Of a DNA stretch of 64,000 nt, positions 5,249-64,000 are shown in pieces. The stretch is from an uncultured Methanosarcinales archaeon. Its GTDB lineage: Archaea > Halobacteriota > Methanosarcinia > Methanotrichales > Methanotrichaceae. The notes under the pieces were generated by a model. It was not told the DNA's origin and did no database searches. It was given only the letters and a program-made list of their open reading frames with translations. Numbering within the stretch: the stretch's first letter is position 1; each line of letters begins with the position of its first letter. Made by a program: the position numbers and the translations under genes. The stretch is taken from positions 22,750 through 86,749 of the forward strand of contig CAWJKV010000009.1 of assembly GCA_963843555.1 (NCBI GenBank), written 5' to 3'.

Positions 5249-5348
5249 ATAAGTAGAACCTGCGTTTTTCAAGCTTATAAATTCATGCCCAAGGTAGTCC
5301 TAGAAAGATATTAATCTTGACTTGCCAAAATAATATCCCGTGGTTTAG

Positions 5349-24700: not shown

Positions 24701-27700
24701 GTCCACGTAGTTGGTCAGATTTTTGGTGCCGGATATGGGGCCATCGATATGGGCTACGATCTGCAGCAATTTGCTGGAGCCGGATGACATGGGACCGATG
24801 TCGGACCAGGAGACATGATGGCCAACTCGGGAGCTGCCCGATGATGATGCAATGTAGCTCATGCCATCCGGCAGAAGATCGCTGACGAAGACATGCGGCA
24901 GAGAAGCGTTGCCCGTATTTTCGACGAGCAGTGTGAAAGTGACATTGGTGCTCGGTGAGCCGAAGGCGGGATCGGCGGTCTTGCTGACGGAGATCTTGGC
25001 TTCCTGGGCGTTCACGCTTGCGGAGGCATTGGCTGTGACATTCTGGCCGTGCTCGGGTTGGCCTGAGACGTCCACGTAGTTGGTCAGATTTTTGGTGCCG
25101 GATATGGGGCCGTCGATGTGGGCCACGATCTGCAGCAATTTGCTGGAGCCGGATGACATGGGACCGATGTCGGACCAGGAGACATGCTGGCTCACTCGGG
25201 AACTGCCCGGTGAAGACGAAACATAACTCATGCCATCCGGCAGGAGATCGCGGACTGAAACATGCGGCAGCGGGGCACTGCCCGCATTCTCGACGACAAG
25301 TGTGAAGGTGACGTTGGTGCTAGGTGAGCCGAAGGTGGGATCGGCGGTCTTGCTGACGGCTATCTTGGCTTCCTGGGCGTTCACGCTTGCGGAGGCATTG
25401 GCTGTGACATTCTGGCCGTGATCGGGTTGGCCTGAGACGTCCACGTAGTTGGTCAGATTTTTGGCGCCGGATATTGGGCTATCGATATGGGCTATGATCT
25501 TCAGCAATTTGCTGGTAGCCAGATGACATGGGACCGATGTCGGACCAGGAGACATTTTGGCCCACTCGGGTGCTGCCCGATGAGGATGCTATGTAGCTCA
25601 TGCCGGAGGGCAGGAGATCGCGGACTGAAACATGCGGCAGCGGGGCACTGCCCGCATTCTCGACGACAAGTGTGAAGGTGACATTGGTGCTAGGTGAGCC
25701 GAAAGTCGGATCGGCGGTCTTGCTGACGGTGATCTTGGCTTCCTGGGCACGAACGTCTGCCGAATCGTTGGCTGTGACATTCTGGCCGTGATCGGGTTGG
25801 CCTGAAACGTCCACGTAGTTGGTCAGATTTTTGGTGCCGGAAATGGGGCCGTCGATATGGGCTACGATCTGCAACGATTTGCTGGCACCAGAGTGACATG
25901 GGACCGATTTCGGACCAGGAGACATTCTGGCCCACACGGGTGCTGCCCGGTGAAGACGAAACATAACTCATGCCATCCGGCAGGAGATCGCGGACTGAGA
26001 CATGCGGCAGCGGGGCACTGCCCGCATTCTCGACGAGCAGAGTGAAGGTGACGTTGGTGCTCGGTGAGCCGAAGGTGGGATTGGCGGTCTTGCTGACGGT
26101 GATCTTGGCTTCCTGAGCCTGCACGATCGCTGAGGAATTGGCTGTGACATTCTGGCCGTGATCGGGTTGGCCTGAGACGTCTACGTAGTTGGTCAGATTT
26201 TTGGTGCCGGAAATGGGGCCGTCGATATGGGCTACGATCTGCAGCGATTTGCTGGCACCGGAGGACATGGGACCGATGTCGGACCAGGAGACATTCTGGC
26301 CCACTCGGGTGCTGCCCGGTGAAGACGAAACATAACTCATGCCATCCGGCAGGAGATCGCGGACTGAGACATGCGGCAGCAGGGCACTGCCCGCATTCTC
26401 GACGACAAGCGTGAATGTGACGTTGGTGCTGGGTGAGCCGAAGGTGGGATCGGCGGTCTTGCTGACGGCTATCTTGGCTTCCTGAGCCTGCACGATCGCT
26501 GAGGAATTGGCTGTGACATTCTGGCCGTGCTTCGGAATGCCAGTCACATCCACATAGTTGGTCAGATTTTTGGTGCCGGATATGGGGCCGTCGATATGGG
26601 CTACAATCTGCAACGATCTGCTGGCACCAGAGGACATGGGACCGATTTCTGACCAGGAGACATTCTGGCCCACTCGGGTGCTGCCCGGTGAAGACGAAAC
26701 ATAACTCATGCCATCCGGCAGGAGATCGCGGACTGAGACATGCGGCAGCAGGGCACTGCCCGCATTCTCGACGACAAGCGTGAATGTGACGTTGGTGCTG
26801 GGTGAGCCGAAGGCGGGGTCAGCGGTCTTGCTGACGGCTATCTTGGCTTCCTGGGACTGGACAATTGCAGTAGAGCTATTAGTGACATTATTTCCAAGTT
26901 CAGGCTTCCCATCCACATGCACAAGGTTGGTCAAAGTATCATTTCCCATCACGGGGCCTCTAATTAGGGCTTTGACCCACAATTGCTTGCTTGCGCCAAT
27001 CTCAATGGGACCAATGTTGGACCAATTTACATGGAGGCCGCTATTTGTGCTTCCTGGTGGGGAGGAGATATAGCTCATACCAGCCGGCAGAAGGTCGCTT
27101 ACGAAGACATCTTTCAGGCTTATATTTCCAATATTCTGAATATTGAGAGTAAAGTTCACAACAGTACCTGGAGAACCCGAGGCTATGTCAAGCGTCTTGA
27201 CCACGGCAATGTTCTGCTTCAATGCAAGAACATCTACGAAGTCGGAAGAGGTACTGCTATCAAACACCTTTTGGTCATCATCGTCTCCGTCAGCGAAATA
27301 TCGGAGGTTGTACCCTTTACCGGTCACGGTGTTGGTGAGCTTGCCACACTCATTTCCGTTGAATGAAGCAGTCACGTGGATAGTAAATTGCTCGCCGGGA
27401 TTCAGGACTCTTCCAAAGGATTGACTGAGGTTGGCCCATTTGAGAGTAGTACTACCATTAATATTAGGGGTAGAAGAGGTTACAACAGGACTTGCATTGA
27501 TGAAGGTGAGACCTTTGGGTAAGAGATCCGTAATCTCAGTTTTATTCAGGAGAACATCACCGCTATTAGTAACATTTATCTCAAAAGTGGTCAGGCTATT
27601 AGGTGCTCCATATACGGGATTTGCGGTCTTGCTTACCACTATATTCGTAATATAGTCTATACCTATGGTCAAGGCATAAACACCGCTGACTGTTTGACGC

Positions 27701-28488
27701 GGGTTCGACGGACTCGCCCAGGGTGGATAGCCATTGGCAAAGGCTGTATTCCTTATCGTGGGCGTATGGAAATCTGCCGGCCCCAGTATATCCTCTTGCG
27801 CTGAGGTGTATGACACGATGCCCGAGGCCGTTTGTCCTGCTGCCAAATTGGTTCGATTGAGTGGGACCGAAATGAAAATATTTGAAGGGTGTTCAATAAC
27901 GTCATCAACGGTTATATTATTTACATCAAAACTAAAGGGATTTATAACTATAATGGTATAATTTACCCTTCCACCCATTGGCACGTAAACGAGATCGGGC
28001 ATCTTTGTCACAAGCAAGGATCCTCCTATCCCCAGGCTAATGGCCCATCTCTTTTTCGTTGAGGTCACATCTGCACCATTAGGTTTCCGGCCAGTAGCCC
28101 ATGCATTGTTGACCAATGGGCCAGGCATATCTGTCACGCTGATCTTGTGACTGATGGAGTGAGTCCAGGTACCACCTGCAGAGAGGTTTCCTATGGATAT
28201 GGATCCTAAACGGTCATCAATAAAGACGACGTTAGTCAGATTTACTCCGTCGTTATTTGTTACTTTATAATCATAAACGACAGTGTCTCCGAATTGGGCT
28301 GACATGGTACTTCCTGTTTTTGTCACTGTCAAAGCCATAGCAGCATCAATAGAAATGAATAATAAATGTATGATGAGGACTAATAATAGCAACTTTTTTA
28401 TCCTAGTGTTTATATTTCTCAGATTTTTTGAATCATTGATTTGGCATACTGTGCGCGATTGAACCCCACCTCCAGATAATGACCCCAT
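9788..28488 (-). CDS. Giant secreted DUF11-repeat surface protein, ~6,200 aa, split by multiple apparent frameshifts
   Basis: N-terminal signal-like segment (RIKKLLLLVLIIHLLFISIDAAMA); ORF pieces 25690-28488, 25479-25964, 20969-25555, 12093-20585 and smaller overlapping pieces down to 9788 continue the same KT...VTFT...N.G...V.D.LP.G..Y domain pattern. Fusion of the 9788-12114 pieces into the same gene is inferred. Confidence 0.8.
13190..26860 (-). repeat. Tandem array of ~37 near-identical 369-bp (123-aa) coding repeats
   Basis: The QEAKI-encoding motif cttggcttcctg recurs every 369-370 bp from ~13556 to ~26843. Confidence 0.95.
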
Positions 28489-47959: not shown

Positions 47960-48069
47960 CGAAGGGACTGGCTATACTGCGTCTCCTGGCAGAAATCTCT
48001 GAACTACTTTCTTGGGGTCGGCAATCGATTGACTCGACAATGTGACTTGTGACTTAAGATCTTTCCAAT

Positions 48070-50032
48070 CTAAGAAGCGCTCGTAGACCTGAACAGTGCC
48101 AGCGCCAGTATATTGGCGAAATGCCTCCAACAACCGCCTCTGTTCTGGCAGTAAGAGCTGATCCGCCTTGCTGAGTCCAACGCCCAGGACTCCAACGGTC
48201 ACCTCTTTTGTCCTCATGGGAAGGTAAGAAAATGTCGCCGAAGAAAGAGTCTCGGTGCCGTGTCCTGCGGGCTTGGCATGTTGAAAGACCCATGTTGCTA
48301 CGCCCAGATTTCTCTCGTCAAAGATCATATGTTCGCCTATTTGCGATCGAACCGACAGACGTCCATTTTCATCAGGCAGCAATATCATAACCTCGCATTC
48401 AAAAGCCTCTGCAATCTCTTTGGCAGCATAACGGAGAAGCTCTTCCAGGTTCCCTGCTGCCATCAGGTCACGGCTGAAGGAATAAAGGGCAGAAACAAAA
48501 CGCTCTCTCTGGCGGGCGCTCTCTCCCTGCCACCTGACCTGATCCGCCAGGAAGCTGGTTGCAATTCCTACAATGATGAATACGCCAAACATGGGAAGAT
48601 AGCGAATGTCCTCCACAGCCAGATTAAACTGAGGGGGAACGAATAAGAAATCCAGAGCTATCACGGCCAAAAGCGATGCCACCCAGCCGGAGCGTCTGCC
48701 CCAGGTCATGCCGCTGTAAACTACCGGAAGTAGCAGCACCATTGCGGTGTTGATGAGACCCAGCCAGTGCTGAAATATCCAGCAAAAACCTGCCGTCACA
48801 GCCACGCTCGCAAGGCTGCCATAGAACGGCTGCCAGCTTCCGCCGACTGAGGGCGCGGGACGCGCGTCCTTCTTCTGATCGATCTCCGTGCTGCCTATGA
48901 CCAGCACATGAATCTGTCCGCTCTTGCTTATGACCTCGTTGACCACGGAACCCCGCAGCCACCTGTTCCATAGACTGGAACGCGGCAGGCCGACAATTAT
49001 TAGGGTCACATTGCGCTCTCGGGCAAAGGCAATTATCTCCTCGGCAATATTTCGCCCTATCAATACCTGAACCCGAGCTCCGAGTTCCCTTGCCAGTCTC
49101 AGATTACGTGACAGTTGGTCCTTTGCGGCTTCTGTAGAAGGTGCCTCCCGGGGGGACTCGACATAGACTGCAAACCATTCCGCATCCAGGTCTGCAGCCA
49201 TGCGCTGACCTGTGCGAATCAAGTGTTCAGAGAGTGGACTGGTGCTGATGCATACGAGCAGCCTTGAACCAGCAGGCCATGGCCCAATGATGCCATGCCT
49301 CTCCATGTAGGAGCGCATGTCTTCGTCTACCTTGCGGGCAGCATACCTCAGCGCCATCTCCCGCAGCCCCAGCAGGTTGCCCTTGCGGAAGAAGCGCTGC
49401 ATGGCCTGCTCGGCCTTGGGTGGGAAGTACACCTTCCCATCCCGGAATCGCTGCAGAAGTTCCTCCGGTGGCAGGTCCACAACTTCGATCTCGTCTGCCA
49501 GCTCCACTATCCTGTCCGGCAGGGTCTCGCGAACCTTCACGCCCGTAATCTGATACACGATATCGTTCAGGCTCTCGATGTGCTGGATGTTCAGGGTCGA
49601 GTAAACATTGACCCCAGCCTCCAGCAGCTCTTCGACATCCTGGTACCTTTTATCGTGGCGTGAGCCCGGCGCATTGGTATGAGCCAGCTCGTCCACCAGA
49701 GCGATAGCCGGGTGACGCTCCAAAACCGCGTCCAGGTCCAGCTCTTCCAGTGTGACACCACCATGCTCGATATGGCGGCGGGGAATTACCTCTAAACCCT
49801 CCAAAAGGGCCTCTGTCTCTGGCCGTCCATGAGTCTCGACGACCGCGGCCACTACATCGACGCAGCTCTTCCGGAGAGACTGCGCCTCTTCCAGCATATG
49901 GTAAGTCTTGCCGACGCCTGCCGCAGAGCCGAGGATGATTTTGAGTGCTCCCCTGCCCTGTTTTGCCTCCTGCTCAACGCTCTTCAGCCTCCGCAGTAAG
50001 GCATCGGGACTCGGCCGGCACTCCCTGTCCAT
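48070..50032 (-). CDS. kdpD: KdpD-like sensor (KdpD domain-Usp-4TM-GAF) without histidine kinase domain
   Basis: GSAAGVGKTY, ETHGR, LVDELAHTN, KRYQDVEELL, FFRKGNL..LRE; after correcting a +1 near 48120 it ends ...LEAFANILALALFRSTSAS stop 48070; the next gene converges at 47959. Confidence 0.88.
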
Positions 50033-50619
50033 CAGTGGCCGCTCCTGTTCAGCTCGTCCAGAGCAAGGTTGAGATTGAGCACATTCACCCTCTCCTGGCC
50101 CATTATGCCAAACTGTGCGGGCTCGATATGCTGGTAGACCAGCACTTTTACTTCAGATTCCGGTATGCTTCGGGCAATGGCCACTCGCGGCACCTGAAGC
50201 ATCGCTCCTTCCATGCTTATGTGCGGGTCGAGGCCGCTGCCTGAGGTGAGGACCAGCTCACTGGGCACAGGTGCATTGGGGGAAAGGTTGTTTTCGTCTC
50301 TGACATCTGAAATTCCCTGGCTCGCCTGCTCCATGAGCTTCTTGCTGGTCGGTCCAAAGTTGCTGGCACCCGAGCCATTGCCAGCGTAGTTTACGGCCGA
50401 AGGTCTTCCATGGAAGTAGCCGGGGCTTGAGAAGTTCTGACCGATGAGTTCAGAGCCCACAACTTTGCCCGCCACGACTATCAAGCTCCCGCTCGCCTGC
50501 TCAGGCATGGCAACCTGGATTATGCCCGTCATGAATAAGGGGTAGACAAGGCCCGTGAGCAAAGAGAATGCTATAAAGAGCCGCATTGCAGTCTTTATAT
50601 CTTCTGTAGTCTCCGTCAT
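50032..50619 (-). CDS. kdpC: K+-transporting ATPase subunit C
   Basis: GSELIGQNF, YFHGRPS, SGASNFGP, SGSGLDPHIS, RVNVLNLNLALD. Confidence 0.95.
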   Translation of the reverse strand: MTETTEDIKTAMRLFIAFSLLTGLVYPLFMTGIIQVAMPEQASGSLIVVAGKVVGSELIGQNFSSPGYFHGRPSAVNYAGNGSGASNFGPTSKKLMEQASQGISDVRDENNLSPNAPVPSELVLTSGSGLDPHISMEGAMLQVPRVAIARSIPESEVKVLVYQHIEPAQFGIMGQERVNVLNLNLALDELNRSGH

Positions 50620-50624
50620 TTTCC

Positions 50625-52662
50625 TCACTCCAGATGCAGCATAACTACCAGGACGTCGATCAGCTTGATGCCGATGAAAGGCACAATCAATCCACCGAGC
50701 CCGTAGATAGCCAGATTTCGGCGCAGCAGCAATGTCGCTGTCGTCGGACGGTACTTAACGCCCCGCAATGCCAGGGGAATGAGCAGCGGGATGACGATGG
50801 CGTTAAAGATGACCGCTGAGAGAACTGCGCTGGTAGGCGTGGTTAGCTGCATGATGTTCAGAGTGTTCAGCATGGGATACTGCACTACAAATATGGCAGG
50901 CAATATGGCGAAGTACTTGGCGACATCGTTGGCCATGCTGAAGGTGGTAAGAGCACCGCGGGTGATCAGGATCTGTTTGCCTATCTCCACTATGTCCAGC
51001 AGCTTGGCAGGATTGGAGTCGAGGTCGACCATGTTGGCAGCCTCCCTTGCAGCCTGAGTGCCCGCATTCATGGCCACGGCCACATCGGCCTGGGCCAGAG
51101 CCGGTGCATCATTAGTGCCGTCTCCTATCATCGCCACAAGATGCCCCTCCTTCTGGTATTTTCGAATTGCCTCCAGCTTCACCTCAGGGCGAGCCTGGCC
51201 GATGAAGTCGTCAATTCCAGCTTCAGCGGCGATAGCTGCAGCCGTCATGGGATTATCTCCCGTGATCATGACAGACCTTATGCCCACGTTTCGCAGGTGA
51301 GAGAGACGCTCCTTGATGTTCTCTTTAAGCACATCCTTCAGCCGTATGGCTCCCAATATTCTGGAGCCTTCGGCCACCACCAGAGGGGTGCCACCTTCTT
51401 TGGCGATGCTTTCCACAGCGGTCTTGATGCCGTCCGGCATGATGCCGCCTTCATTCTTAACGTACTCTTCGATGGCGTCATGCGATCCTTTCCGTATCTT
51501 TCGGCTATCCCAGTCTATTCCGCTCATGCGCGTCTCTGCGCTGAAGGGAATGAAAGATGAACCAACCGGTGCCCGAATATCTCTGCCGCGGACGCCCAGA
51601 ATCTCCTTGCAGAGATCCACAATGCTTCGACCCTCAGGCGTCTCATCGGCCAGAGAAGAGAGCATAGCTGCCTCCGCAAGATCTTCTTTGCTAATGCCAT
51701 TCGCGGGAATGAACTCCGTGGCCATTCTGTTGCCAAGGGTAATGGTGCCGGTCTTGTCCATCAGAACGACGTCCACATCTCCTGCAGCCTCAACGGCCCT
51801 GCCGCTCAGAGCAATGACATTGTGCTGGAGAAGCCTATCCATTCCAGCAATGCCGATGGCAGGCAGAAGTCCTCCAATGGTCGTGGGCATCAGACAGACC
51901 AGAAGGGCAACAAGAACCGGCACAGATACCACCATGCCCATATAGCCAGCAAATGCCTCGAGGCTGACAACAACTACCAGGAACAGACCTGTTAGGCCTA
52001 TGAGCAGTATCTCCAGCGCCTGTTCGTTGGGTGTCTTCTGGCGTTTGGCGCTCTCAACCATGCCGATCATCTGATCCAGGAAGGTCTCCCCTGGATCTGC
52101 AGTGATGCGGATCTTTATCTTTCCGGAAAGAACCCTTGTGCCGCCTGTCACTCCGCAGAGGTTTCCTCCAGCCTCCCGGACTACAGGCGCGGATTCACCG
52201 GTTACCGCCGACTCGTCCACCAGGGCTACTCCTTCTGCTACCTCTCCATCGCTGGGGATGATCTCGCCATCTCCCACCAGGACCAGATCCGCCCTTGCGA
52301 AGTACAAGAGCCGTCACCTGCTCTGTTCTGCCATCAGGAAGCAACCTGCTGGCGGAAGCCTCGCTGCGAGCCTGACGCAGGGTCTCGGCCTGGGCTCGAC
52401 CTCTTCCTTCCGCCAATGCCTCGGCAAAGTTGGCAAACAGTATGGTGAACCATAGCCAGATGCTGATTTGCGCGTCGAATCCATAGTCCGATTTAGCGAT
52501 TATATCGTGCAATGTAATCAGGGTCGTCAGTATTGCCCCAATCTCTACCGCGAACATCACCGGATTTCTCCAGAGCCTGCGCGGGTCCAGCTTGGGGATT
52601 GAATCCTTTACAGCCTGCCACACCTGTTCCGACTGCCAGAGGCCCGACATTTTGGTCTTCAT
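50625..52662 (-). CDS. kdpB: K+-transporting ATPase subunit B (frameshift near 52305)
   Basis: [36 protein letters not shown]. Confidence 0.95.
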
Positions 52663-52666
52663 GTAA

Positions 52667-54376
52667 TCACCTCAGAAGGTCACTTCCTGCCTGCAACAGC
52701 AGATTTTCCAGTATCGGCCCGAGAACAAAGACCGGGAAGAAGGTCAAGGCGCCTACTATTAAGACCGTTCCCGCCAGCATTATCACAAAGAGCGGACTGG
52801 CGATAGGCAGGGTAGCAACGCTTGTGGGCACTATCTTTTTCTGTGCCAGAGAACCTGCTATAGCCAGGGCCGGGAGGATAGTGGCAAGCCTTCCTACTAT
52901 CATTCCAAGGGCTGTCGCCAGGTTGTAGAAGACTGTATTCGCATTAAGCCCGGCGAATGCAGATCCATTATTGCCGCAGGCTGATGCGAAGGCATAGAGG
53001 ATCTCTGACAGACCGTGGGGGCCAGCATTATTCAGGCTGGAAAGACCCACTGGAAGCATTATGGCGATTCCGGCCAGAATCAGCACCATCACAGCTGGTG
53101 CCAGCATCCCTATCACCGCCATTATCATCTCAAAAGGTTCAAGTTTCTTGCCGAAGATCTCAGGAGTCCTTCCGATCATCAGCCCGGCCAGGAACATGGT
53201 CATGATGGCATAGAAGAGCATTCCGATGAGGCCGACACCAACCCCTCCGAAGATCACCTCGCCAATGGCCATGTTGAAGAGGAACACGAGTCCCGTCAAA
53301 GGTAACATGCTATCGTGCATGCTATCAACTCCTCCGTCCGAAGTCACGGTGGTGGACTGGGCGAAGAGCACGGATGGTATGATTCCAAATCTCGTTTCCT
53401 TGCCCTCCATGTTAGCGCCTCCGGCTATGCCCAGATTTTCCAGTAGCGGATTTCCCTGGGTCTCAGCCCAGAGTGCCAGACCGAGGCCCATCAGGTAGAG
53501 CAGCAGCATGGCCGCGAATATCGCCCGGCCCTGTTTGGGGTTGTTGATAATGTGCCCAAGTGCGAAGGGAAGCGAGGCTGCTATCAGCAGCATCCCCAGC
53601 ACCTGCAGAAAGTCCGTCAAAGGCGTTGGATTCTCGTAAGGATGGGCTGAATTGGCATTGAAGAAACCTCCTCCATTGGTTCCCAGGAATTTGATGGAGT
53701 CCTGCGAGGCGGTGGGTCCCACTGCGATAGTCTGCACTCCACTGTCAAGGGTTTGGGCGGTGACGTAAGGTCCCAGGGTCTGAACCACACCTTGGGATGC
53801 GAATATCAATGCCCAAATGATTGCTAGAGGAAGCAGAAGATAGAGAACCGATCGGGTGAGGTCGACCCAGAAGTTGCCGATTGTTGCCGTATTCTTGCGA
53901 ACGAAGCAACGGACTACGGCCATAGAAGCAGCTATTCCTGTCGCCGCAGATAGGAAGTTCTGCACAGTCAATCCCAACATCTGAGTCAGATAGCTCATCG
54001 TCTGCTCGCCGCTGTAGGACTGCCAGTTCGTGTTGGTGGCGAAAGAGACCGCTGTGTTCAAGGCAGTATCCCATCTGACGGGACCCAGGGCCTGAGGATT
54101 GAGCGGAAGCAAAAACTGTGCTTCACAAAGCAGAAAGACCGCCAACAATCCCAGCGCATTAAAGATCAAAAGGTTTGCCGCATAGGTCTTCCAGGACATC
54201 TCCCGCAACTCATCCACGCCGCAAATTCTGTAAAGCCTTTGCTCCGCGGGCCGCAGTAGCGGCGAGAGCAGCGTACGATTGCCGCTGAAAACGTTCGCAA
54301 TATATCTTCCAGTAGGCTCTGCAAGTACTATCAAGACAACTAGCAGCAGCGCCACATATGCTAATTCCATTAACAT
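52667..54376 (-). CDS. kdpA: K+-transporting ATPase subunit A
   Basis: TNTNWQSYSGE, LGTNGGGFF, AHPYENP, GRTPE, NNGSAFAGL. Confidence 0.96.
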   Translation of the reverse strand: MLMELAYVALLLVVLIVLAEPTGRYIANVFSGNRTLLSPLLRPAEQRLYRICGVDELREMSWKTYAANLLIFNALGLLAVFLLCEAQFLLPLNPQALGPVRWDTALNTAVSFATNTNWQSYSGEQTMSYLTQMLGLTVQNFLSAATGIAASMAVVRCFVRKNTATIGNFWVDLTRSVLYLLLPLAIIWALIFASQGVVQTLGPYVTAQTLDSGVQTIAVGPTASQDSIKFLGTNGGGFFNANSAHPYENPTPLTDFLQVLGMLLIAASLPFALGHIINNPKQGRAIFAAMLLLYLMGLGLALWAETQGNPLLENLGIAGGANMEGKETRFGIIPSVLFAQSTTVTSDGGVDSMHDSMLPLTGLVFLFNMAIGEVIFGGVGVGLIGMLFYAIMTMFLAGLMIGRTPEIFGKKLEPFEMIMAVIGMLAPAVMVLILAGIAIMLPVGLSSLNNAGPHGLSEILYAFASACGNNGSAFAGLNANTVFYNLATALGMIVGRLATILPALAIAGSLAQKKIVPTSVATLPIASPLFVIMLAGTVLIVGALTFFPVFVLGPILENLLLQAGSDLLR

Positions 54377-55200
54377 TTATATCGCCTTCGAGGGGATAAT
54401 AATCCAAAGTAAATGAGTGGTTTAGTATGATTACTATCGTAGTCTGTTTCGACTATAATAGGATTCTGAATTTATCTGGGACGTCGTCCCGATACAAAAT
54501 GGTTTACAATTGCAGAATATCTGCAAGTCATAACATAGGCATCGCTCTTGCGTAACTTGCCCAATATTGTCGTTGCCCCTTCAGCCGTTGGCAAGCGGGA
54601 GATCGAAGAGGAATCGCCTTTGACCCTACCCTGAAATATCTTCATGCAACATTCCTCTGGAGAAAGTGACGGATTTTTTTTTATTGACTCCAACCATTCT
54701 CCATGAGAGGAAGCGAAATGCCGGCCTCAATATATAAATATATCCCTGCAAACGAAGGAGAAAGGCATACTTTATGTGCGAATTCCAAATCCTCATCATG
54801 GAGAGGATATAAGTGTCAGGCTCTTATCCAGAATTTTGCGTGATGCCAGAATAAGCCGTGAGGAATGGCTCTCTGTAGCGTGAACTACTATCCGGACTGC
54901 ATGAGACATTCTTTAGCAGAGAGATGAATTGCCAGGCATAAATCTGGGGATATTGAGCGGCAAAGCGCTTTCGATAAACAGACAACAGAAAAAGAACGCG
55001 CAAAGGTGATTAACCAATCCGAAAACCACAGTTATAATTTATGAAGCTACAATTATTAACCACAAAGAACAAAGACACGAAGAACAACTATCAAACCAAA
55101 ATTCCGCCACAGACCCAAAGGGGCGGGAGGTACGTCTTTTGCCTTCGTGCCTTTGTGGTGAGCCCCCCGTGAAGACACATAGAAGACCCGAATTAACCTC

Positions 55201-55500
55201 CGTTCGTTCGTCCTCAGCGCGCTCTGCGACTCTGCGGTTCTATTCCGTAACCCAAGAGGTTTAGCTATCAGATTATCCCGCTCCCAGCTTAACCGGGATT
55301 GCACTCCACTCATCTCCGGACCGCGGCAGTTGGCGGACTTGGCGGCAAAGGAGGCTGGCAGACCAGCGCATGGATTTCGGGCGCTACAGGCGGTGAGGTT
55401 GCCATTATTGAAGATGGTAGCACATAGACCGGATCGAAAAGAATAGCTGGCCCAACAGCTGGAAAGGGCGAACATCTCAGTTACGGGATAGTCCGACAAA
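55201..55500. repeat. Spacer repeat copy 1
   Basis: cgttcgttcgtcct...cgtaacccaagagg...cttaaccgggattgcactccactca...gatttcgggcgctacagg...gaaagggcgaacatctc. Confidence 0.9.
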
Positions 55501-55617
55501 GACGCGGCAGCATTTCCGTGCACTGCAAAACATGGTGAACTGGATTGTAAATTTCAAATTGTCGTGAGTTGGGATGAAAAAGTCTATAAGTAAAAAGCGA
55601 TTAAAGTTGCATAGTGG

Positions 55618-55917
55618 TTGACAGTGGGTGAGATTTAAAAGTGGATGTACCCGAGGGTCTGCCTTTAAACAATCTCCGGAAGAAGATCCTTGAGCTCATC
55701 AAAGAGGAAGAGGACAAGTTGTCGTTGCTTGACAGGTCAAACAAGATGAAGGTGTTGAGCAAAAGAGAGCTTGACGAACTAATAGAAACAAAGGAACCGC
55801 TGCAAAAAGAGGAGCGAAAGAAGATCCTAGATAAGTATTATGGAATGCATCAAGCTTGACAGAACTGTAAGCATAGAGGAGATCCTGGATCTGGAGGAAG
55901 ATACCTGGCGATACTGA
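55618..55917 (+). CDS. Putative VapB-type antitoxin, copy 1 (apparent insertions near 55635 and 55846)
   Basis: Near-identical to intact 61134..61430; overlaps the downstream PIN gene. Confidence 0.65.
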
Positions 55918-56341
55918 TAGACACTAATATCATCGTATCTTTTCTATTCCCAACAGATAAATCAGAGAGGGCCAGACGAGATCCTTGAAATGTCGAACGG
56001 TCCGATCATAACCATAAGTATTTTGGAAGAAGCGGCATATGTTGGACTTTCGACTCATCTATGGTTGCCATGGATTTAAGTTGAGAGATCAACTGAAAAG
56101 GGAGCTTAAAGAGACAGCCATGGTCTTTCTTGAGCGGCTAAAATCATTCTTGGTCGAATTCAGGATTAAGCTCTTATCAGTGCCCGAAGACCCAGATCTT
56201 CTTTTGGAAGCAGTTGAGGCTTACAGATTGCTTCCAAATGATGCAGCTATCGTTACTGCCTGCCAATATTACGGGATAAAGAAAATAGCCACGTTTGATA
56301 GCGATTTCAATAGAGTTGCGTCTCTAGATGTGATTCGATAA
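55905..56341 (+). CDS. vapC: PIN-domain (VapC) toxin, copy 1 (CTG start, frameshift near 55977)
   Basis: ILIDTN...EE...LLPNDA...ATFDSDF; paralog of 61418..61852. Confidence 0.8.
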
Positions 56342-56504
56342 CTGCCCTAGGGTTACGATTTTAATCGCAAAGCTAAGAAGTCTTATAATTATAAAGCTAC
56401 GATTATTAACCGCAGAGACGCAGAGTTCGCAGAGACGTGAAATTTATCTTATTACAGCACTTGAAAAGAATAGCATATTTGCTTCTGAGCAATAGTCGTC
56501 TCCG

Positions 56505-56690
56505 TTCGTTCGTCCTCAGCGCGCTCTGCGACTCTGCGGTTCTATTCCGTAACCCAAGAGGTTTGGCTATCAGCTTATCCCGCTCCCAGCTTAACCGGGA
56601 TTGCACTCCACTCATCTCCGGGACCGCGGCCGTTGGCGGGCTTGGCGGCATTGGAGGCCGGGAGAATGCACAAGAATTTTGGGCGCTGAG
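56505..56690. repeat. Spacer repeat copy 2 (shorter variant)
   Basis: Same core at 56590; diverges after gaggccgggaga. Confidence 0.9.
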
Positions 56691-56752
56691 GCATATGCCG
56701 GAGCGAGAGTTGCTGATGCCGGAGAAGGGTGGCGAGATGCAGCTTTCTCATA

Positions 56753-57274
56753 TCAGGACATGCCCAAGCGTTCCTTAATCGCTCGAATATCGGCTTGCAC
56801 CAGCCTGAATTGCGTTGCATACCCTGGCTGAATGTCCTCTCTCATGCCTTTGATTTCTTCATGAATCTGAGGTATTATGTCGGTGTTCTTCCTCACAGCT
56901 TTCATATCGCCCTTCATCTCTTTTAGATCATCCCTCATATCCAATAGCAGCGGGATAGCCTTGTTTAGCTGGAAGGCGGTGCAGACTTGAGCATATTCTC
57001 CTGTTTTCATAACTTCACTGTCGGTTTCCTCAAAGGCAATATTCGATACCAAGGAGCGCTCCGGCTTTTGCCTTTCTATCAGCTTTTTAAAGTCTGCAAT
57101 TGCTTCTTCATTGCCTTCGACCAGGGCAACTACTTCCTGCTCATTTCCACTCATCGTATTGCGGGCTTGGAAACCGCGAAGAGCAAAATCTATGGCACTA
57201 CTCATGAGAAAATATCTATAGCCCACGTTATGCACGTTTTGACCTGTAATCTTGATCTTTAGCTTCATGCTCAT
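56753..57274 (-). CDS. Acylphosphatase-domain protein with C-terminal coiled coil, copy 1
   Basis: ITGQNVHNVGYR, GFQARN, VVALVEG; heptad-like tail DMRDDLKEMKGDMKAV. Confidence 0.75.
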   Translation of the reverse strand: MSMKLKIKITGQNVHNVGYRYFLMSSAIDFALRGFQARNTMSGNEQEVVALVEGNEEAIADFKKLIERQKPERSLVSNIAFEETDSEVMKTGEYAQVCTAFQLNKAIPLLLDMRDDLKEMKGDMKAVRKNTDIIPQIHEEIKGMREDIQPGYATQFRLVQADIRAIKERLGMS

Positions 57275-57730
57275 CAGGATATGTGTTCTTTGAACTATTT
57301 GGTTGTTTCCCCAATCTCGCCCGTATCCTTCAATCAGAAACTTTTATATGAGTCTTAAGTCTCATAATTAGCAAATAAGTTAAAGGTGTGAGAATCCTTG
57401 ACAGAAATCAATCCTGATGTAGCTATCGAGCGCCCGGGAGAATGATATCTCCGGGAAAATCGGCGCGGCCATTGAGTCCACAGAGGCACAGAGTTCACAG
57501 AGACGCTCAGCATTCCTTTCCATCCAACCTAAGAAAGCCCAACCAATTGCTTCCGGGATAAATGGTCGTTCTCCGTTCGTTCGTCCTTTGTGCGCTTTGT
57601 GAGCTTTGTGGTTAAATTCCGTAACCCTTGGTTCAAATTATCCTGCTACTAATATCAACCACAAAGAGCACAAAGCTCACAAAGAAAGCACCAAGGCAAG
57701 TTGGTCTAATCTTCAGTATAATAACTTTCT

Positions 57731-57912
57731 TCGTTCGTCCTCTGTGCGCTTGTGTCTCCTTCGTGAAGTCCGTAACCCAAGAGGTTTAGCTATCAGATTA
57801 TCCCGCTCCCAGCTTAACCGGGATTGCACTCCACTCATCTCCGGACCGCGGCCGTTGGCGGGCTTGGGCGGCATTGGAGGCCGGGAGAATGCACAAGAAT
57901 TTTGGGCGCTGG
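57731..57912. repeat. Spacer repeat copy 3
   Basis: Core at 57813, 1223 bp after copy 2. Confidence 0.9.
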
Positions 57913-57975
57913 GGCATATGCCGGAGCGAGAGTTGCTGATGCCGGAGAAGGGTGGCGAGATGCAGCTTTCTCATA

Positions 57976-58497
57976 TCAGGACATGCCCAAGCGTTCCTTA
58001 ATCGCTCGAATATCGGCTTGCACCAGCCTGAATTGCGTTGCATACCCTGGCTGAATGTCCTCTCTCATGCCTTTGATTTCTTCATGAATCTGAGGTATTA
58101 TGTCGGTGTTCTTCCTCACAGCTTTCATATCGCCCTTCATCTCTTTTAGATCATCCCTCATATCCAATAGCAGCGGGATAGCCTTGTTTAGCTGGAAGGC
58201 GGTGCAGACTTGAGCATATTCTCCTGTTTTCATAACTTCACTGTCAGTTTCCTCAAAGGCAATATTCGATACCAAGGAGTGCTCCGGCTTTTGCCTTTCT
58301 ATCAGCTTCTTAAAGTCTGCAATTGCTTCTTCATTGCCTTCGACCAGGGCAACTACTTCCTGCTCATTTCCACACATCGTATTGCGGGCTTGGAAACCGC
58401 GAAGAGCAAAATCTATGGCACTACTCATGAGAAAATATCTATAGCCCACGTTATGCACGTTTTGACCTGTAATCTTGATCTTTAGCTTCATGCTCAT
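57976..58497 (-). CDS. Acylphosphatase-domain protein with C-terminal coiled coil, copy 2
   Basis: Same 173 aa as copy 1 except MSG>MCG and PERS>PEHS. Confidence 0.75.
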   Translation of the reverse strand: MSMKLKIKITGQNVHNVGYRYFLMSSAIDFALRGFQARNTMCGNEQEVVALVEGNEEAIADFKKLIERQKPEHSLVSNIAFEETDSEVMKTGEYAQVCTAFQLNKAIPLLLDMRDDLKEMKGDMKAVRKNTDIIPQIHEEIKGMREDIQPGYATQFRLVQADIRAIKERLGMS

Positions 58498-58951
58498 CAG
58501 GATATGTGTTCTTTGAACTATTTGGTTGTTTCCCCAATCTCGCCCGTATCCTTCAATCAGAAACTTTTATATGAGTCTTAAGTCTCAAAATTAGCAAATA
58601 AGTTAAAGGTGTGAGAATCCTTGACAGAAATCAATCCTGATGTAGCTATCGAACGCCCGGGAGAATGATATCTCCAGGATCGGCGCGGCCATTGAGTCCA
58701 CAGAGGCACAGAGTTCACAGAGACGCTCCGCATTCCTTTCCATCCAACCTAAGAAAGCCCAACCAATTGCTTCCGGGGTAAATAGTCGTCTCCGTTCGTT
58801 CGTCCTTTGTGCGCTTTGTGAGCTTTGTGGTTAAATTCCGTAACCCTTGGTTCAAATTATCCCGCTACTAATATCAACCACAAAGAGCACAAAGCTCACA
58901 AAGAAATGCACCAATGCAAAGTTGGTCTAATCTTCAGTATAATAACTTTCT

Positions 58952-59230
58952 TCGTACGTCCTCAGCGCGCTCTGCGACTCTGTGGTGGAAGTTCGTAACC
59001 CAAGAGGTCTTGCCTATCAGATTGACAAGACCCAGCTTAACCGGGATTGCACTCCACTCACCTCCGGGACCGCGGCCGTTGGCGGGCTTGGCGGCAATGG
59101 AGGCCGGAAGACCGGCGGATGGATTTCGGGCGCTACAGGCTGTGAGGTTGCCATTATTGAAGATGGTAGCACATGGACCGGATCGAAAGAATAGCTGGCC
59201 CAACAGCTGGAAAGGGCGAACATCTCGATT
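58952..59230. repeat. Spacer repeat copy 4
   Basis: Core at 59036, long variant. Confidence 0.9.
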
Positions 59231-59387
59231 ACCTGACAAGTCCGCCTCAGACCCGCATCATTTGCCGGCACAGAAATCGGTGGAGGAGGAGCCCTGGTGC
59301 AACAAGAATGATCGGGGAACTGCAAAGCTGCGCACAATATTTTAATGAACCATCTCATATTTGCCAGTAAATCAAGAGGTCCCATCC

Positions 59388-59617
59388 ATGAAAAGAAAAT
59401 TCAGCGTTTTGGTTGAAAAGGACGAGGATGGCTACCTCGTAGCGACAGTTCCAACCCTTCCCGGATGCCATACGCAGGCAAAAAGAATGGACGACCTCCT
59501 GGCAAGAGTAAAAGAAGCGATCGAGGCGTATCTAGAAGAGAAAAAGAGGTAGATATTTCTGAATTCGTGGGTGTGCAGTTTGTCGAAGATGAAAGTCGGT
59601 TGAAGCTGATACGATAG
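59388..59617 (+). CDS. hicB: HicB-family antitoxin (apparent frameshift near 59545)
   Basis: FSVLVEKDEDGYLVATVPTLPGCHTQA...VKEAIEAYLE; EFVGVQFVE tail in the adjacent frame; GAGGT RBS. Confidence 0.8.
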
Positions 59618-59751
59618 TGAAGGCCTGACGAAGATCGGAGCATATGAAATACCTTAGAAGGTTTGACATATTCGACTGCAATATTGTCCAATGGCTCTTT
59701 TCAAAGCGTCAAGAGTATAATCTTTAAGCCCCAACACATAATAGGATCATT

Positions 59752-59937
59752 ATGAAAATTAAAGCAATATACGAGCATGAAGTCCTAAAGCCACTGGAAA
59801 AGCTGGATCTGAAAGATGGCGAAGAAGTCGAACTCATGCTAACGAAGAAGATCTCAGAGAGGACCTTCGGCTTGATCACGCTGGATCATGATACCATTGA
59901 AGAGATCATTGAGGATACAGAATATGGGTCCTGGTAA
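59752..59937 (+). CDS. AF2212/DUF104-like antitoxin
   Basis: IKAIYEHEVLKPLEKLDLKDGEEVEL pattern; overlaps the PIN gene. Confidence 0.8.
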   Translation: MKIKAIYEHEVLKPLEKLDLKDGEEVELMLTKKISERTFGLITLDHDTIEEIIEDTEYGSW

Positions 59938-60443
59938 TCTTCGGAATATCCCAGAAGATGAAAAGGTTTTTATTGATTCCAAATATCCTAACTTACAATT
60001 TATTGAATGATAGCGTCTTTGGATATGAATGCAATAATTTTATTAAGAAGATTGAAGGCGGAAGATATTACGGATTTGTATCTCCATTGGTTATTTCGGA
60101 GACACTTTTTAATGTGATAAAAGCATGGGCGTTCAAAGAACATGGAGTAAGGCCCAGAGATCTTCCCCGTGTGATAAAAGAGCATCGAGAGATTCTACAC
60201 GATATGCCAGTTGATCAAACATCAGAGCTTTTCGATCTATTTTTTGTGCTATCTATTGGTGAAGCAGAGGTTAAAGAATCATATAATTTTATTAATAAAT
60301 ATCATTTACTTACCAATGATGCACTAAATGCTGCAACGATGAAGGTTAATAGAATAGATCATATGGCAACGAATGACAGAGACTTTTTTGATATAGATTG
60401 GATAAAATGCTGGCGACCTGATTCCCACAACCGCCAGGGTTGA
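59924..60443 (+). CDS. vapC: PIN-domain (VapC) toxin (apparent frameshifts in the N-terminus)
   Basis: VFIDSN after frame correction, VISETL, LLTNDA, ATNDRDF. Confidence 0.8.
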
Positions 60444-60717
60444 TTTTTCAGCTACGATTATTAACCGCAGAGGCACAGAGTTCACAGAGACGCTCAGCAT
60501 TCCTTTCCATCCGACCTAAGAAAGCCCAGCCAATTGCTTCCGAGATAAATGGTCGTCTCCGTTCGTTCGTCCTTTGCGGGCTTTGTGAGCTTTGTGGTTA
60601 AATTCCGTAACCCTTGGTTTAAATTATCCCGCTACTAATATCAACCACAAAGAGCACAAAGCTCACAAAGAAATGCACCAATGCAAGTTGGCCCAATCTT
60701 CAGTATAATGACTTTCT

Positions 60718-61015
60718 TCGTTCGTCCTCCGCGCGCTCTGTGACTCTGCGGTTCTATTCCGTAACCCAAGAGGTTTAGCTATCAGATCATCTCGCTCCCA
60801 CCTTAACCGGGATTGCACTCCACTCATCTCCGGACCGCGGGCGTTGGCGGGCTTGGCGGCAGGAGGCCGGGAGACCGGCAGATGGATTTCGGGCGCTACA
60901 GGCTGTGAGGTTGCTGCTATTATTGAAGATGGTAGCACATAGACCGGATCGAAAAGAATAGCTGGCCCAACAACTGGAAAGGGCAAACATCTCGGTTACG
61001 GGACAGTCCGACAAA
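60718..61015. repeat. Spacer repeat copy 5
   Basis: Core at 60802, long variant closely matching copy 1. Confidence 0.9.
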
Positions 61016-61133
61016 GACGTGGCAGCATTTTCCGGCACTGCAGAACATGGTGAACTGGATTGTAAATTTTAAATTGTCGTGAGTTGTGGATGAAAAAGTC
61101 TATAAGTAAAAAGCGATTAAAGTTGCATAGTGG

Positions 61134-61430
61134 TTGACAGTGGGTGAGATAAAAGTGGATGTACCCGAGGGTCTGCCTTTAAACAATCTCCGGAAGAAGA
61201 TCCTTGAGCTCATCAAAGAGGAAGAGGACAAGTTGACGATGCTTGACAGGTCAAACAAGATGAAAGTGTTGAGCAAAAGAGAGCTTGACGAACTAATAGA
61301 AACAAAGGAACCGCTGCAAAAAGAGGAGCGAAAGAAGATCCTAGATAAGTATTATGGAATCATCAAGCTTGACAGAACTGTAAGCCTAGAGGAGATCCTG
61401 GATCTGGAGGAAGATACCTGGCGATACTGA
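61134..61430 (+). CDS. Putative VapB-type antitoxin, copy 2 (intact)
   Basis: 98-aa acidic-tailed ORF overlapping the PIN gene; BRE/TATA-like gaaaaagtctataag at ~61092. Confidence 0.7.
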   Translation: MTVGEIKVDVPEGLPLNNLRKKILELIKEEEDKLTMLDRSNKMKVLSKRELDELIETKEPLQKEERKKILDKYYGIIKLDRTVSLEEILDLEEDTWRY

Positions 61431-61852
61431 TAGACACTAATATCATCATATCTTTTCTATTCAAAACAGATAAATCAGAGAGGGCCAGAGAAATCCTTGA
61501 AATGTCGAACGGTCCGATCATAACCATAAGTATTTTGGAAGAAGCGGCATATGTTGGACTTTCACTCATCTATGGTTGCCACGGATTTAAGTTGAGGGAT
61601 CAACTGAAAAAGGAGCTTAAAGAGACAGCCAGGGTCTTTCTTGAGCGGCTAAAATCATTCTTGGTCGAATTCAGGATTAAGCTCTTATCAATGCCCGAGG
61701 ACCCCGATCTTCTTTTGGAAGCAGTTGAGGCTCACAGATTGCTTCCAAATGATGCAGTTATCGTTGCTGCCTGCCAATATTACGGGATAAAGAAAATAGC
61801 AACGTTTGATAGCGATTTCAATAGAGTTGCGTCTCTAGATGTGATTCGATAA
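61418..61852 (+). CDS. vapC: PIN-domain (VapC) toxin, copy 2 (CTG start)
   Basis: GGAGG-7nt-CTG, then AILIDTNII in frame with ORF 61502..61852; LLPNDA, ATFDSDF. Confidence 0.85.
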   Translation: MAILIDTNIIISFLFKTDKSERAREILEMSNGPIITISILEEAAYVGLSLIYGCHGFKLRDQLKKELKETARVFLERLKSFLVEFRIKLLSMPEDPDLLLEAVEAHRLLPNDAVIVAACQYYGIKKIATFDSDFNRVASLDVIR

Positions 61853-62014
61853 CTGCCCTAAGGTTACGATTTTAACCACAAAGACACCAAGACACGAAGA
61901 ACAGACTATTAAACCAAAATTCCGCTACAGACACAAGGGAGCTGAATGGACGTCTTTGTGCTTTCGTGGTTAGCCCCGTGATGACACATAGAAGATCCGA
62001 TTAACCTCAGTCCA

Positions 62015-62230
62015 TTCGTCCTCCGTGCGCTCTGTGTCTCTGTGGTTTTATTCCCGTAAACCGCCAGTATCAAATTATCCTCCCCCAGCTTAACCGGGAT
62101 TGCACTCCACTCACCTCCGGATCGCGGCCGTTGGCGGGCTTGGCGGCATTGGAGGCCGGAAGACCGGCGGATGGATTTCGGGCGCTGGGCCCTGCAGGAT
62201 TTGCCATTATTGAAGATGGTAGTACATGGA
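62015..62230. repeat. Spacer repeat copy 6
   Basis: Core at 62089. Confidence 0.85.
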
Positions 62231-62409
62231 ACGAAACCTTTTTAAATCTTTATAATGATCGTGATCTTGGAAGAGAGTCCAGAACTCTAATAAGAAAATT
62301 ATAGTTCTCTGAAGGCTATATCGGCCATCAATCTGAATTGAGGTTATGATAAGAGGGGATGGCTGGATAGCCGGGGCTTTAGACTCTTTCGCTAATATAG
62401 CTATTATTA

Positions 62410-63425
62410 TCAACCACCAGGACACCGAGTCCAAAACATTTGTGAGCCCGAGAGATCGTTTTCCAGAGCTCTGGTTAGTGATTCATAGAGCTCAGTGAGC
62501 GCCTTATGCAAAGGAATCGCTTCCTCGAACTTCTCGGCGAGATCTTTCGATTCCCGAAAGTAGGTGTGCCCAGCATCGCTGCAAGCGCTTTGTGAATCTG
62601 GCATACGGTTTCCACCCGTCACATACGATTATGCCCTTGAATCTCCGCGTCAAACTTCTATCAGGACTTTCGTGCCTCGACTCTTTCGAATCACAAAAAA
62701 GGTCTCAGATGGTGTAGTAAATGTCCAGATCCAATGCTTTTCTCCCTGGACATGGATTCCCGTTTCATCCACGTACAGGATCGGAGCATCTCGAATCTTG
62801 TTCAAGATTGCGTCGTATTCCGATTGAACCGCTTCAGCGGCGCGACGGGTTAAATCGAATATCGTAGCCGGACTTATTTTCAGTCCATGCATTCTGTCTC
62901 AGTGCACCTTGGATTTTTCTGTGAGGCAGCCTATCCTCATATTTTAGTAGCGTCGTCTGCGCAATTATGTTGTTTCCGAATTTGCCTTTATGTGGGCAAT
63001 TTGCATCGCTTCGCAACAACTTCTTTCCGGCAGCATGGACATCTGTAATGAGCTATTTTGTATTCAGTAACCATGACCGGCTGAGGTTCGGGAATTTCTT
63101 CGATGATCTTCGACTCAATTCGGAAAGGAGTGCCAAGCTCTGCTCCGCAATCGGGACATCGATCTGCTGTGACTTCTACTTGACTATCTGGAACTGCATT
63201 TGGTCTCGTTACGCCTTTATGCCCTATCTTTTGGCCGGGCTTTCCCTTGTTGTCCTTATCCTTTTTGCGATTGCGGCCACGTCTTAGACTTGGCGGAGTA
63301 TGTGCATTCTCATATTTGGCTAGTCGGGCTTCAAGCTCAATTATTTTTGCCTTAAGCAACTCGTTCTCACGCCTTAATTGCTCATTCTCTTCTTGAAGTT
63401 GCTTTATTGTTTCTTCTTCGTGCAT
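62410..63425 (-). mobile_element. IS66-family transposase, frameshifted and C-terminally truncated
   Basis: N-terminal coiled coil, KPGQKIGHKG, CPDCG...CPCC zinc finger, YVDETG, WIWTF, RKSRG, CDGW/QRCWAH region in shifted frames; homology appears lost near 62450. Confidence 0.85.
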
Positions 63426-63767
63426 ACTCCCAATTAATGAATATCATCATTATATTATTTAATTCTTTGGTCTAAATGAATTTTAGGGAAATTTTCGGAG
63501 ACTTAAGTGGGAGCCAATATATGCCTTGGAAGATCAAGGCTTCAATGGAATCGCACGCGAGCGTGGTCCTTAGTAGAATGCGAATTCGTCTTCCAGGGGA
63601 TGGTAGATATGTGGAGGAGGATACAGGAGAATGTGAGCGATGACAGGAGGGGTTAACGGATGCACACTAGAATGTGGTGCCCGTTCCATTTGGGTCTCGC
63701 ACAAATTTCGCATGGTAGAAAACGACGGCTCTGGAGCTTTAGGAACTCAAGAATGAAGAAATCTTTT

Positions 63768-64000
63768 ATGGAATGGACACGGGGAACAAATTTGTGGTCT
63801 GACTATTTAAAAACCAGAAATATAACTATATTAGCTATACTTAATTATTTTTTACTATTGCTCACTTTGTACATAATTATAATTACTCCTACAGCAAAAA
63901 GTTATGAATACTCAATTTATGCAGCATACCCAAAATACTTTCTGGTATCTCTTGATGTCATCCATTTTCTTCGGGAATGAAGCTGGTGCAACTGCGCGAG
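63768..64000 (+). CDS. Start of an AT-rich integral membrane protein, running off the window
   Basis: Hydrophobic ILAILNYFLLLLTLYIIII followed by YEYSIYAAYP; start and frame uncertain. Confidence 0.4.

Follow-up and report, generated by a model that had tools for sequence, protein, structure and literature searches.

Repetitive extragenic palindromes (REP) and bacterial interspersed mosaic elements (BIME) that are paired with a REP-associated tyrosine transposase (RAYT) are described as extragenic inverted repeats of alternating orientation that vary in unit number between strains and occur as singlets, doublets or clusters; the partner enzyme gene is flanked by its own repeat type, and gene fragments have been captured between the repeats (PMC2817692, PMC3733652). 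For the Ssn nucleases and the NTS/dRS3 repeats of Neisseria, the gene of a small single-domain GIY-YIG nuclease is described as flanked by hairpin repeats, which cluster beside surface-related variable genes and are proposed to provide homology for recombination (PMC11893778). Here we analyzed a 64,000-nucleotide stretch of contig CAWJKV010000009.1 (the window) from an uncultured archaeon of the Methanotrichaceae, in which toxin-antitoxin (TA) and acylphosphatase (AcP) genes are arranged between copies of a composite hairpin repeat. We consider this locus, with a probability of about 0.6, to be a mosaic array of TA and AcP modules at REP/BIME-like hairpins that is shuffled there by host recombination, and not an integron.

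Like REP/BIME, the inverted arms of these hairpins are dispersed, extragenic, alternating in orientation and variable in copy number, the gene of a GxxExxY nuclease is flanked by its own arm type, and gene fragments lie between arms. Unlike a REP, which is a self-contained stem-loop of 20 to 40 nt with a GTAG or CGTC tag, an arm pairs with the next arm over 100 to 165 nt and its flanking motif is CGTA/TACG; furthermore, no RAYT was found in 105 genomes of the family, whole TA operons stand between the arms, and the host is an archaeon. With Ssn/NTS the system shares a small nuclease gene flanked by hairpin arms and arrays beside surface-glycan genes, but its partner is a predicted PD-(D/E)XK nuclease (TIGR04256, PF13366) and not a GIY-YIG protein, no search having been aimed at Ssn homologues. 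As in integrons and clusters of attC sites lacking integron integrases (CALIN), as far as these are described in the main text of PMC9668308, short genes alternate with hairpins, are rich in TA pairs, lie mostly in one orientation and vary in order. Unlike in those systems, no IntI, attC boxes or single crossover point was found, the modules carry their own TATA-like promoters, many genes are truncated and the repeat is dispersed genome-wide. The GxxExxY-arm arrays are distinguished by the dominance of TA and AcP modules, their position at glycan-operon heads in relatives, a clade-specific core and tail, and their archaeal host. The array works somewhat like an integron without being one; it is a repeat-plus-nuclease mosaic element, and what is new is an archaeal, TA-rich, glycan-island version with a mapped exchange zone. 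No description of this repeat or array was found in the literature covered, which included few subscription papers.

Layout of the array

The original prediction described six copies of a 25-bp core alternating with short genes, and an exact 25-mer was found at each of the six positions (Table 1); in 200 shuffles of positions 55031 to 62230, no 12-mer occurred more than twice. A seventh exact copy and an eighth, slightly degenerate one lie on another contig (C6) of the same genome, here called G000, which is 82% complete and in which the window's contig is C9. The Pfam matches, in the order PIN, acylphosphatase twice, HicB, AF2212 plus PIN, PIN and then pieces of IS66, agree with the predicted cargo of vapBC-A, AcP, AcP, hicB with vapBC-B, and vapBC-A, followed by IS66. 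The cargo had also been expected to lie in either orientation, which holds for the two reversed AcP genes only, as every TA operon points in the same direction.

The two AcP units are 97.5% identical to each other and the two vapBC-A units 95.0%, differing by 20 and 45 substitutions. These units are therefore diverged duplicates rather than an exact assembly echo and, with the modules recurring in other genomes, an assembly artefact was ruled out. Since the assembly carries indel errors (tgt is split into four frames), the frameshifts in vapBC-A copy 1 and in hicB may not be real. Modules homologous to vapBC-A occur with other neighbors in G001, G045, L108 and L119, where the other G numbers denote relatives and L numbers denote individual loci taken from G000, relatives or metagenomes. 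The end of the window is the end of the contig and falls inside the IS66 remnant region, so that the context on the right of the array lies beyond the contig. The AcP protein belongs to ESM Atlas clusters that are all archaeal, and these clusters, like the genes of the window, mark the host as an archaeon. The AcP-domain family with this C-terminal extension has at least 12 paralogues in G000 (contigs C2, C3, C5, C7, C10 to C12 and C14 to C17) and is a recurrent array cargo.

The structured element is the hairpin arm

The repeat unit is a composite of 250 to 450 bp, comprising two to four inverted arms, a linker of about 45 bp, the core and a GC-rich tail of about 130 bp. The L arm reads TACG-N7-ACCRCAGAG.CRCAGAG and the R arm is its complement, ending in GGT-N7-CGTA; each arm forms one half, with heptamer periodicity, and has the next arm as its only pairing partner. 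Folding of the arm pairs gave z scores of -3.3 to -6.7 in six of seven cases and -1.5 in the seventh, the arms contain conserved mismatches, and a CGTA/TACG pair lies beyond them. The core and tail folded no better than shuffles (z of 0.1 to 0.6 for the core), and an Rfam scan of positions 54400 to 64000 gave nothing near a gathering score, which ruled out the core as a structured RNA or DNA site. The key element is the hairpin arm, and the 25-bp core belongs to a non-coding, unstructured tail behind it.

Three sets were used for comparison, namely 105 genomes of the family, 58 other genomes of the genus and 101 sampled genomes from other families of the class. The core and tail were matched in only 4 of the 58 genus genomes, in one of them at the distal end only, and together with the lack of structure this speaks against the core as the likely recombination site. 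Copies of the core were collected from the window, C6, three relatives and 16 metagenome loci; as judged by eye, an R arm immediately precedes 36 of these 37 copies. The core and tail are likely a passenger: a single capture behind an R arm, in one clade, would have been followed by copying together with that arm. A decayed gene was ruled out, and the tail taken to be non-coding, because 38 of 47 indels among 30 copies are of a single base, some of which assembly errors may have added. A six-frame tblastn search of core and tail against the loci and G000 gave, in its best 40 matches, nothing but cargo genes and further copies of the repeat. The end of an insertion sequence (IS) or of a miniature inverted-repeat transposable element, which had been considered as another source of the repeat, was likewise rejected for the core: IS66 joins after a gene-less module, D, and not at the core. 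No target duplication was readable at three dispersed arm sites. Many arrays contain the D module, which is also present upstream of the TPR cluster described below.

The arms form a dispersed repeat family

The exact arm pattern was found in 54 of the 105 family genomes, with 0 to 142 matches each and none for the reversed control, and in 2 of the 101 genomes from other families; most of the arms in the family lie between ordinary genes. The 41 matches in G000 form 15 loci, with a TA-type gene within 1.5 kb at five and none at ten; conversely, 25 of the 31 TA loci in this genome have no arm. None of 20 dispersed arm loci in G001 (20 of the 22 sites among the matches listed) matched the TA query set, and one has a PIN-like open reading frame by eye. 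The number of arms varies at orthologous intergenic sites between close relatives. As the arms are dispersed, mostly free of cargo and variable in number at such sites, the family behaves like BIMEs. The concern that the repeat might be scattered irrespective of TA cargo is thus justified for the structured arm part, the core being found in a few related genomes. In G072, tandem units of about 158 bp, with one arm each and no cargo (L082, ~4300 to 5300; L081, ~740 to 1300), represent pure repeat expansion.

Arrays in relatives

Relatives carry arrays of about 26 kb (G045) and about 35 kb (G001), in which arms stand between modules of DUF4258/DUF2283, AF2212/PIN, HicAB, TumE, UPF0150, UPF0175, AcP and GxxExxY. 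These two arrays also hold IS elements and fragments of genes for GT2, UDP-GlcNAc 2-epimerase and UDP-glucose dehydrogenase. Elements of the IS66, IS110 and IS605 types and gene fragments are scattered through the arrays, where microhomology joins and truncated genes (hicA, GxxExxY and the three glycan genes just named) are abundant. The same TPR-HEAT-TPR cluster adjoins arrays in G000 (on C6), G045, G039, G048, G058, G023, G031 and G072 with a different content each time, and YdjM is a second anchor. Several of the array regions were picked for holding GxxExxY, so the arrays compared are not a random sample. The archaeal platform for cassette shuffling that had been predicted is borne out to the extent that content and order differ at the same conserved site, rather than being invariant across genomes, and that modules recur with different neighbors; neither a recombinase nor a single point of crossover emerged. 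The second and shorter array of G000 (C6, 98600 to 101300; L001) lies behind the TPR-HEAT-TPR cluster and an epimerase gene and has DUF4258/DUF2283 and UPF0150 cargo.

In G048 and G023, two arrays face inward around glycan genes, and in G045 and G001 the arrays meet with only fragments between them. In G048 (contig C1, 255 to 318 kb; L073 to L076), about 30 kb of glycan genes lie between the inward arrays, and 5' fragments of the first of these genes occur several times over within the arrays. This suggests that single-crossover insertions have taken place repeatedly at operon heads. At the kdp site adjoining the window's array, the three closest relatives checked (G042, G047 and G039) match through the promoter to about position 54745 and then continue with other DNA, the array being absent from all three. 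By these alignments the site of the window's array is lineage-specific, and the array has likely been displaced from the hypervariable island found beside surface-glycan genes in relatives, as a piece of it.

A GxxExxY nuclease gene tracks the arms

The GxxExxY family was matched in 20 of the 105 family genomes. Of the 35 matches listed, 24 loci were examined, and the 19 with at least 56% identity all have window-type arms within 700 bp. The five divergent loci have two other arm words, on both sides in four of the five; these loci fall into two clades, L057, L058 and L060 (G033, G052 and G103) and L059 and L066 (G074 and G103), with CACGCGAAG-type and ACCGCTAATGAAC-type words that are unlike the window's. 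Each of the three GxxExxY clades has its own arm sequence, and the GxxExxY nuclease gene is the enzyme gene that tracks the arms. All 16 of the aligned proteins have D78, E88 and K90 without variation; the AlphaFold model built from 16 sequences was poor (pLDDT 56.8), and there was no sequence match in the PDB. The window holds two truncated GxxExxY 5' remnants, which the original prediction overlooked and which provide the best enzyme lead. The whole AcP/GxxExxY unit is kept in L121, L114, L117 and G068, and the pair is also whole in G045. Intact GxxExxY was not found in G000 or in arm-rich G019, G020, G029, G043 and G062, these genomes being 70 to 96% complete.

The partners proposed earlier, a tyrosine recombinase or a RAYT, did not emerge from the searches. 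The RAYT model NF047646 matched none of the 105 family genomes, its control being positive in Escherichia coli, and the Y1 proteins of G000, both full-length, are IS200 TnpA (139 versus 30 bits). The tyrosine recombinases are considered with the integrons below.

The exchange zone lies at the distal arm

A total of 180 arm junctions were classified by their upstream and downstream modules. Among classes with at least two members, 15 of 23 upstream and 21 of 26 downstream ones had more than one partner, duplicates still being included, and in 41 of 101 pairs with the same downstream module the homology begins 23 to 59 nt upstream of the anchor. For linkage, duplicates were removed, which left 82 R junctions, whose 23 and 33 pairs represent 6 and 13 classes with wide intervals. 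The last ~8 nt of the arm and the spacer were common to both sides, and the bases after CGTA were mainly linked to the downstream module. The class-level alignments place some switch points within the arm, some past the spacer and some well into the tail. The exchange zone is the distal (R) arm and just after; it is given as the distal arm and not as a single base because of the small number of classes, their wide intervals and the spread of the switches over arm, spacer and tail. No single crossover base was apparent for the module swaps, and a fixed point for a subset is compatible with the data.

Four unrelated metagenomes were also compared. In a search for same-strain reads, the best run contained 14% of the words; the four compared are from relatives and cannot show circles. 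Their contigs cover single modules that are joined differently at the repeats, with vapBC-A, for example, joined to another L arm in three of the four runs, and none spans the array. These junctions bear on the proposal that the array is a passive scar, produced as a variable island underwent tandem duplication and deletion locally, in which the hairpins are REP-like passengers with no special role. That two of the five units are recent duplicates, that IS elements and gene fragments litter the arrays and that most TA loci of G000 lack an arm would all fit such a scar. However, module borders fall at arms repeatedly across genera, with homology beginning shortly before the anchor as above, and the joints in all four metagenomes fall in repeats, so that we consider a passive origin unlikely.

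Under the mosaic reading favored here, self-promoted TA and AcP modules lie between copies of a dispersed hairpin repeat, and the 40 to 250 bp shared at the repeats would enable host recombination to duplicate, delete and reorder them. This recombination would be host-driven, through RadA or microhomology, and would need no dedicated recombinase. The GxxExxY nuclease, whose activity is predicted, is probably the original partner that recognizes and spreads the arms, and is probably dispensable for later shuffling. TA addiction would favor the retention of modules, and TA pairs likely accumulate because their loss is penalized. Several observations weigh against this reading. Arm loci lie close to TA genes more often than random positions do (5 of 15, versus 4.4%), which pure drift does not explain, although the enrichment is partly circular because the TA queries and the arm profile were built from arrays. 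Arm positions -34 to -9 go with the upstream module (0.52 to 0.74, versus 0.13 to 0.32 for the matched background) and are barely linked to the downstream module (0.18 to 0.33 versus 0.13 to 0.18). Exchange at the level of pairs thus appears narrower than the available homology, and a targeted cut fits better than diffuse crossing-over, although the intervals for classes are wide. Finally, a recombination event was never seen directly, the available reads being those of relatives.

Such a targeted cut is central to an alternative that we hold to be possible but doubtful, in which the system is an integron analogue. GxxExxY might nick the hairpin, once extruded, close to the R-arm base (last heptad, spacer and CGTA), and repair might then insert, excise or swap modules; the window's array would be an orphan from which the nuclease copies were deleted. 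In this tentative form, methanogens of this family would have a cassette system without an integrase, in which a PD-(D/E)XK nuclease that cuts its cognate arms would direct the capture and reordering of TA modules at surface-glycan operon heads. The centering of the exchange zone on the arm end, the conserved mismatches and the CGTA/TACG pair, the three clades with three arm words and the invariant D78, E88 and K90 are all consistent with this, and the Ssn/NTS system, as far as it is described in PMC11893778, is a precedent for a small nuclease cutting its own hairpin repeat. Against it stand the several switch points and many truncated genes, the location of most arms at cargo-free sites, the failure to find an intact gene in G000 or the five arm-rich genomes, and an activity that is predicted only, with a poor structure model. 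The GxxExxY family is widespread and uncharacterized, and its three clades and three arm sequences provide cognate and non-cognate substrates with which its function is directly testable; the polymorphic arms also allow crossovers to be mapped. If the nuclease does direct the exchange, the system would be an integron analogue whose enzyme has another fold, whereas if it is dispensable, the arrays would be a good example of repeat-mediated shuffling, of moderate interest.

Comparison with integrons

It was also considered that the array might be a true integron array (CALIN), with the hairpins as atypical attC sites and the integrase encoded elsewhere or supplied from outside. The gene-then-hairpin layout, the TA-rich cargo and the AAC...GTT at some hairpin ends are in keeping with this, and archaeal CALINs with TA cassettes exist according to PMC9668308, the main text of which does not mention this lineage; its supplementary CALIN list could include such arrays. 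As originally predicted, however, the repeat is not a canonical attC: RYYYAAC was present in none of seven L arms and GTTRRRY in three of seven R arms, all of them variant arms. The integron integrase model TIGR02249 matched none of the 105 family genomes, a weak negative since the control set contains no integrase and stayed silent. Two of the three tyrosine recombinases (PF00589) of G000 were scanned and scored 42 and 69 bits against an IntI cut-off of 265, both matching XerA-type models better, and none of the three lies on C9 or C6. In addition, the arms are a dispersed family, and exchange does not appear to be limited to one site. A true CALIN is therefore already largely refuted, and we regard it as very improbable. 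The mosaic array offers a way for TA-dense hypervariable islands to arise in a lineage of archaea that has no integron integrase, and ties such islands to surface-glycan loci. These loci are the usual targets of virus pressure.

Features of the window and its surroundings

Table 1. Array features in window coordinates, with the supporting evidence
Feature	Position	Strand	Evidence
hicA 3' fragment; left array edge, joined to the promoter region of kdpA	54773..54883	+	89-93% identical to hicA 3' ends in G045, G001 and G048 arrays
Junction 1: variant hairpin 55058-55165, R arm 55202-55259, linker, core 55288-55312, GC-rich tail	55031..55440	+	
vapBC-A copy 1 (antitoxin and PIN toxin); 1-nt shifts relative to copy 2, possibly assembly errors	55641..56341	+	Pfam PIN; 95.0% identity to copy 2
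Junction 2: L arm 56391-56444, loop, R arm 56504-56561, core 56590-56614, short tail	56391..56690	+	Hairpin z -3.8 / -3.3 by strand
Acylphosphatase-domain protein with C-terminal extension, copy 1	56753..57274	-	PF00708, E 3e-12
GxxExxY 5' remnant (~30 codons), divergent to AcP; the deletion runs into the L arm at a shared CCAC	~57387..57481	+	Alignment to the intact G045 and L121 genes
Junction 3: L-R-L arms, degenerate R arm, core 57813-57837, short tail	57478..57910	+	R-L hairpin z -6.7
Acylphosphatase-domain protein, copy 2	57976..58497	-	PF00708; unit 97.5% identical to copy 1
Second GxxExxY 5' remnant	~58610..58701	+	blastn 76-78% to the beginning of GxxExxY of G045 and G039
Junction 4: L-R-L-R arms, core 59036-59060, tail and hicB leader	58698..59345	+	
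hicB antitoxin and hicA 5' stub (pair intact in G045)	59388..59630	+	PF15919; alignment to G045 hicBA
vapBC-B: AF2212-like antitoxin and PIN toxin	59752..60443	+	Pfam; 88% identical to G045 copy in another context
Junction 5: L-R-L-R arms, core 60802-60826, tail	60445..60960	+	
vapBC-A copy 2: 98-aa antitoxin and 140-aa PIN toxin, frames open	61134..61852	+	PF01850, E 5e-17
Junction 6: variant hairpin, R arm 62009-62068, core 62089-62113, tail, gene-less D module	61859..62455	+	
IS66 transposase remnant near the contig end	62460..63425	-	PF13005, PF03050

Elsewhere in G000, the start of contig C3 (L002, 1 to 3500) and part of C13 (L003, 1500 to 4960) are near-identical over about 3.5 kb, with extra indels in the C3 copy; strain or assembly redundancy is possible. 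In the window, the kdpABC-D potassium uptake operon (47972 to 54376, minus strand) is divergent from the left edge of the array and has apparent frameshifts in kdpB and kdpD. A giant gene for a DUF11-repeat surface protein (12096 to 28488, minus strand), broken into three frames near 20.4 to 21.0 kb and 25.6 kb in this indel-prone assembly, contains about 38 tandem units of 369 bp, two of the units being 370 bp.

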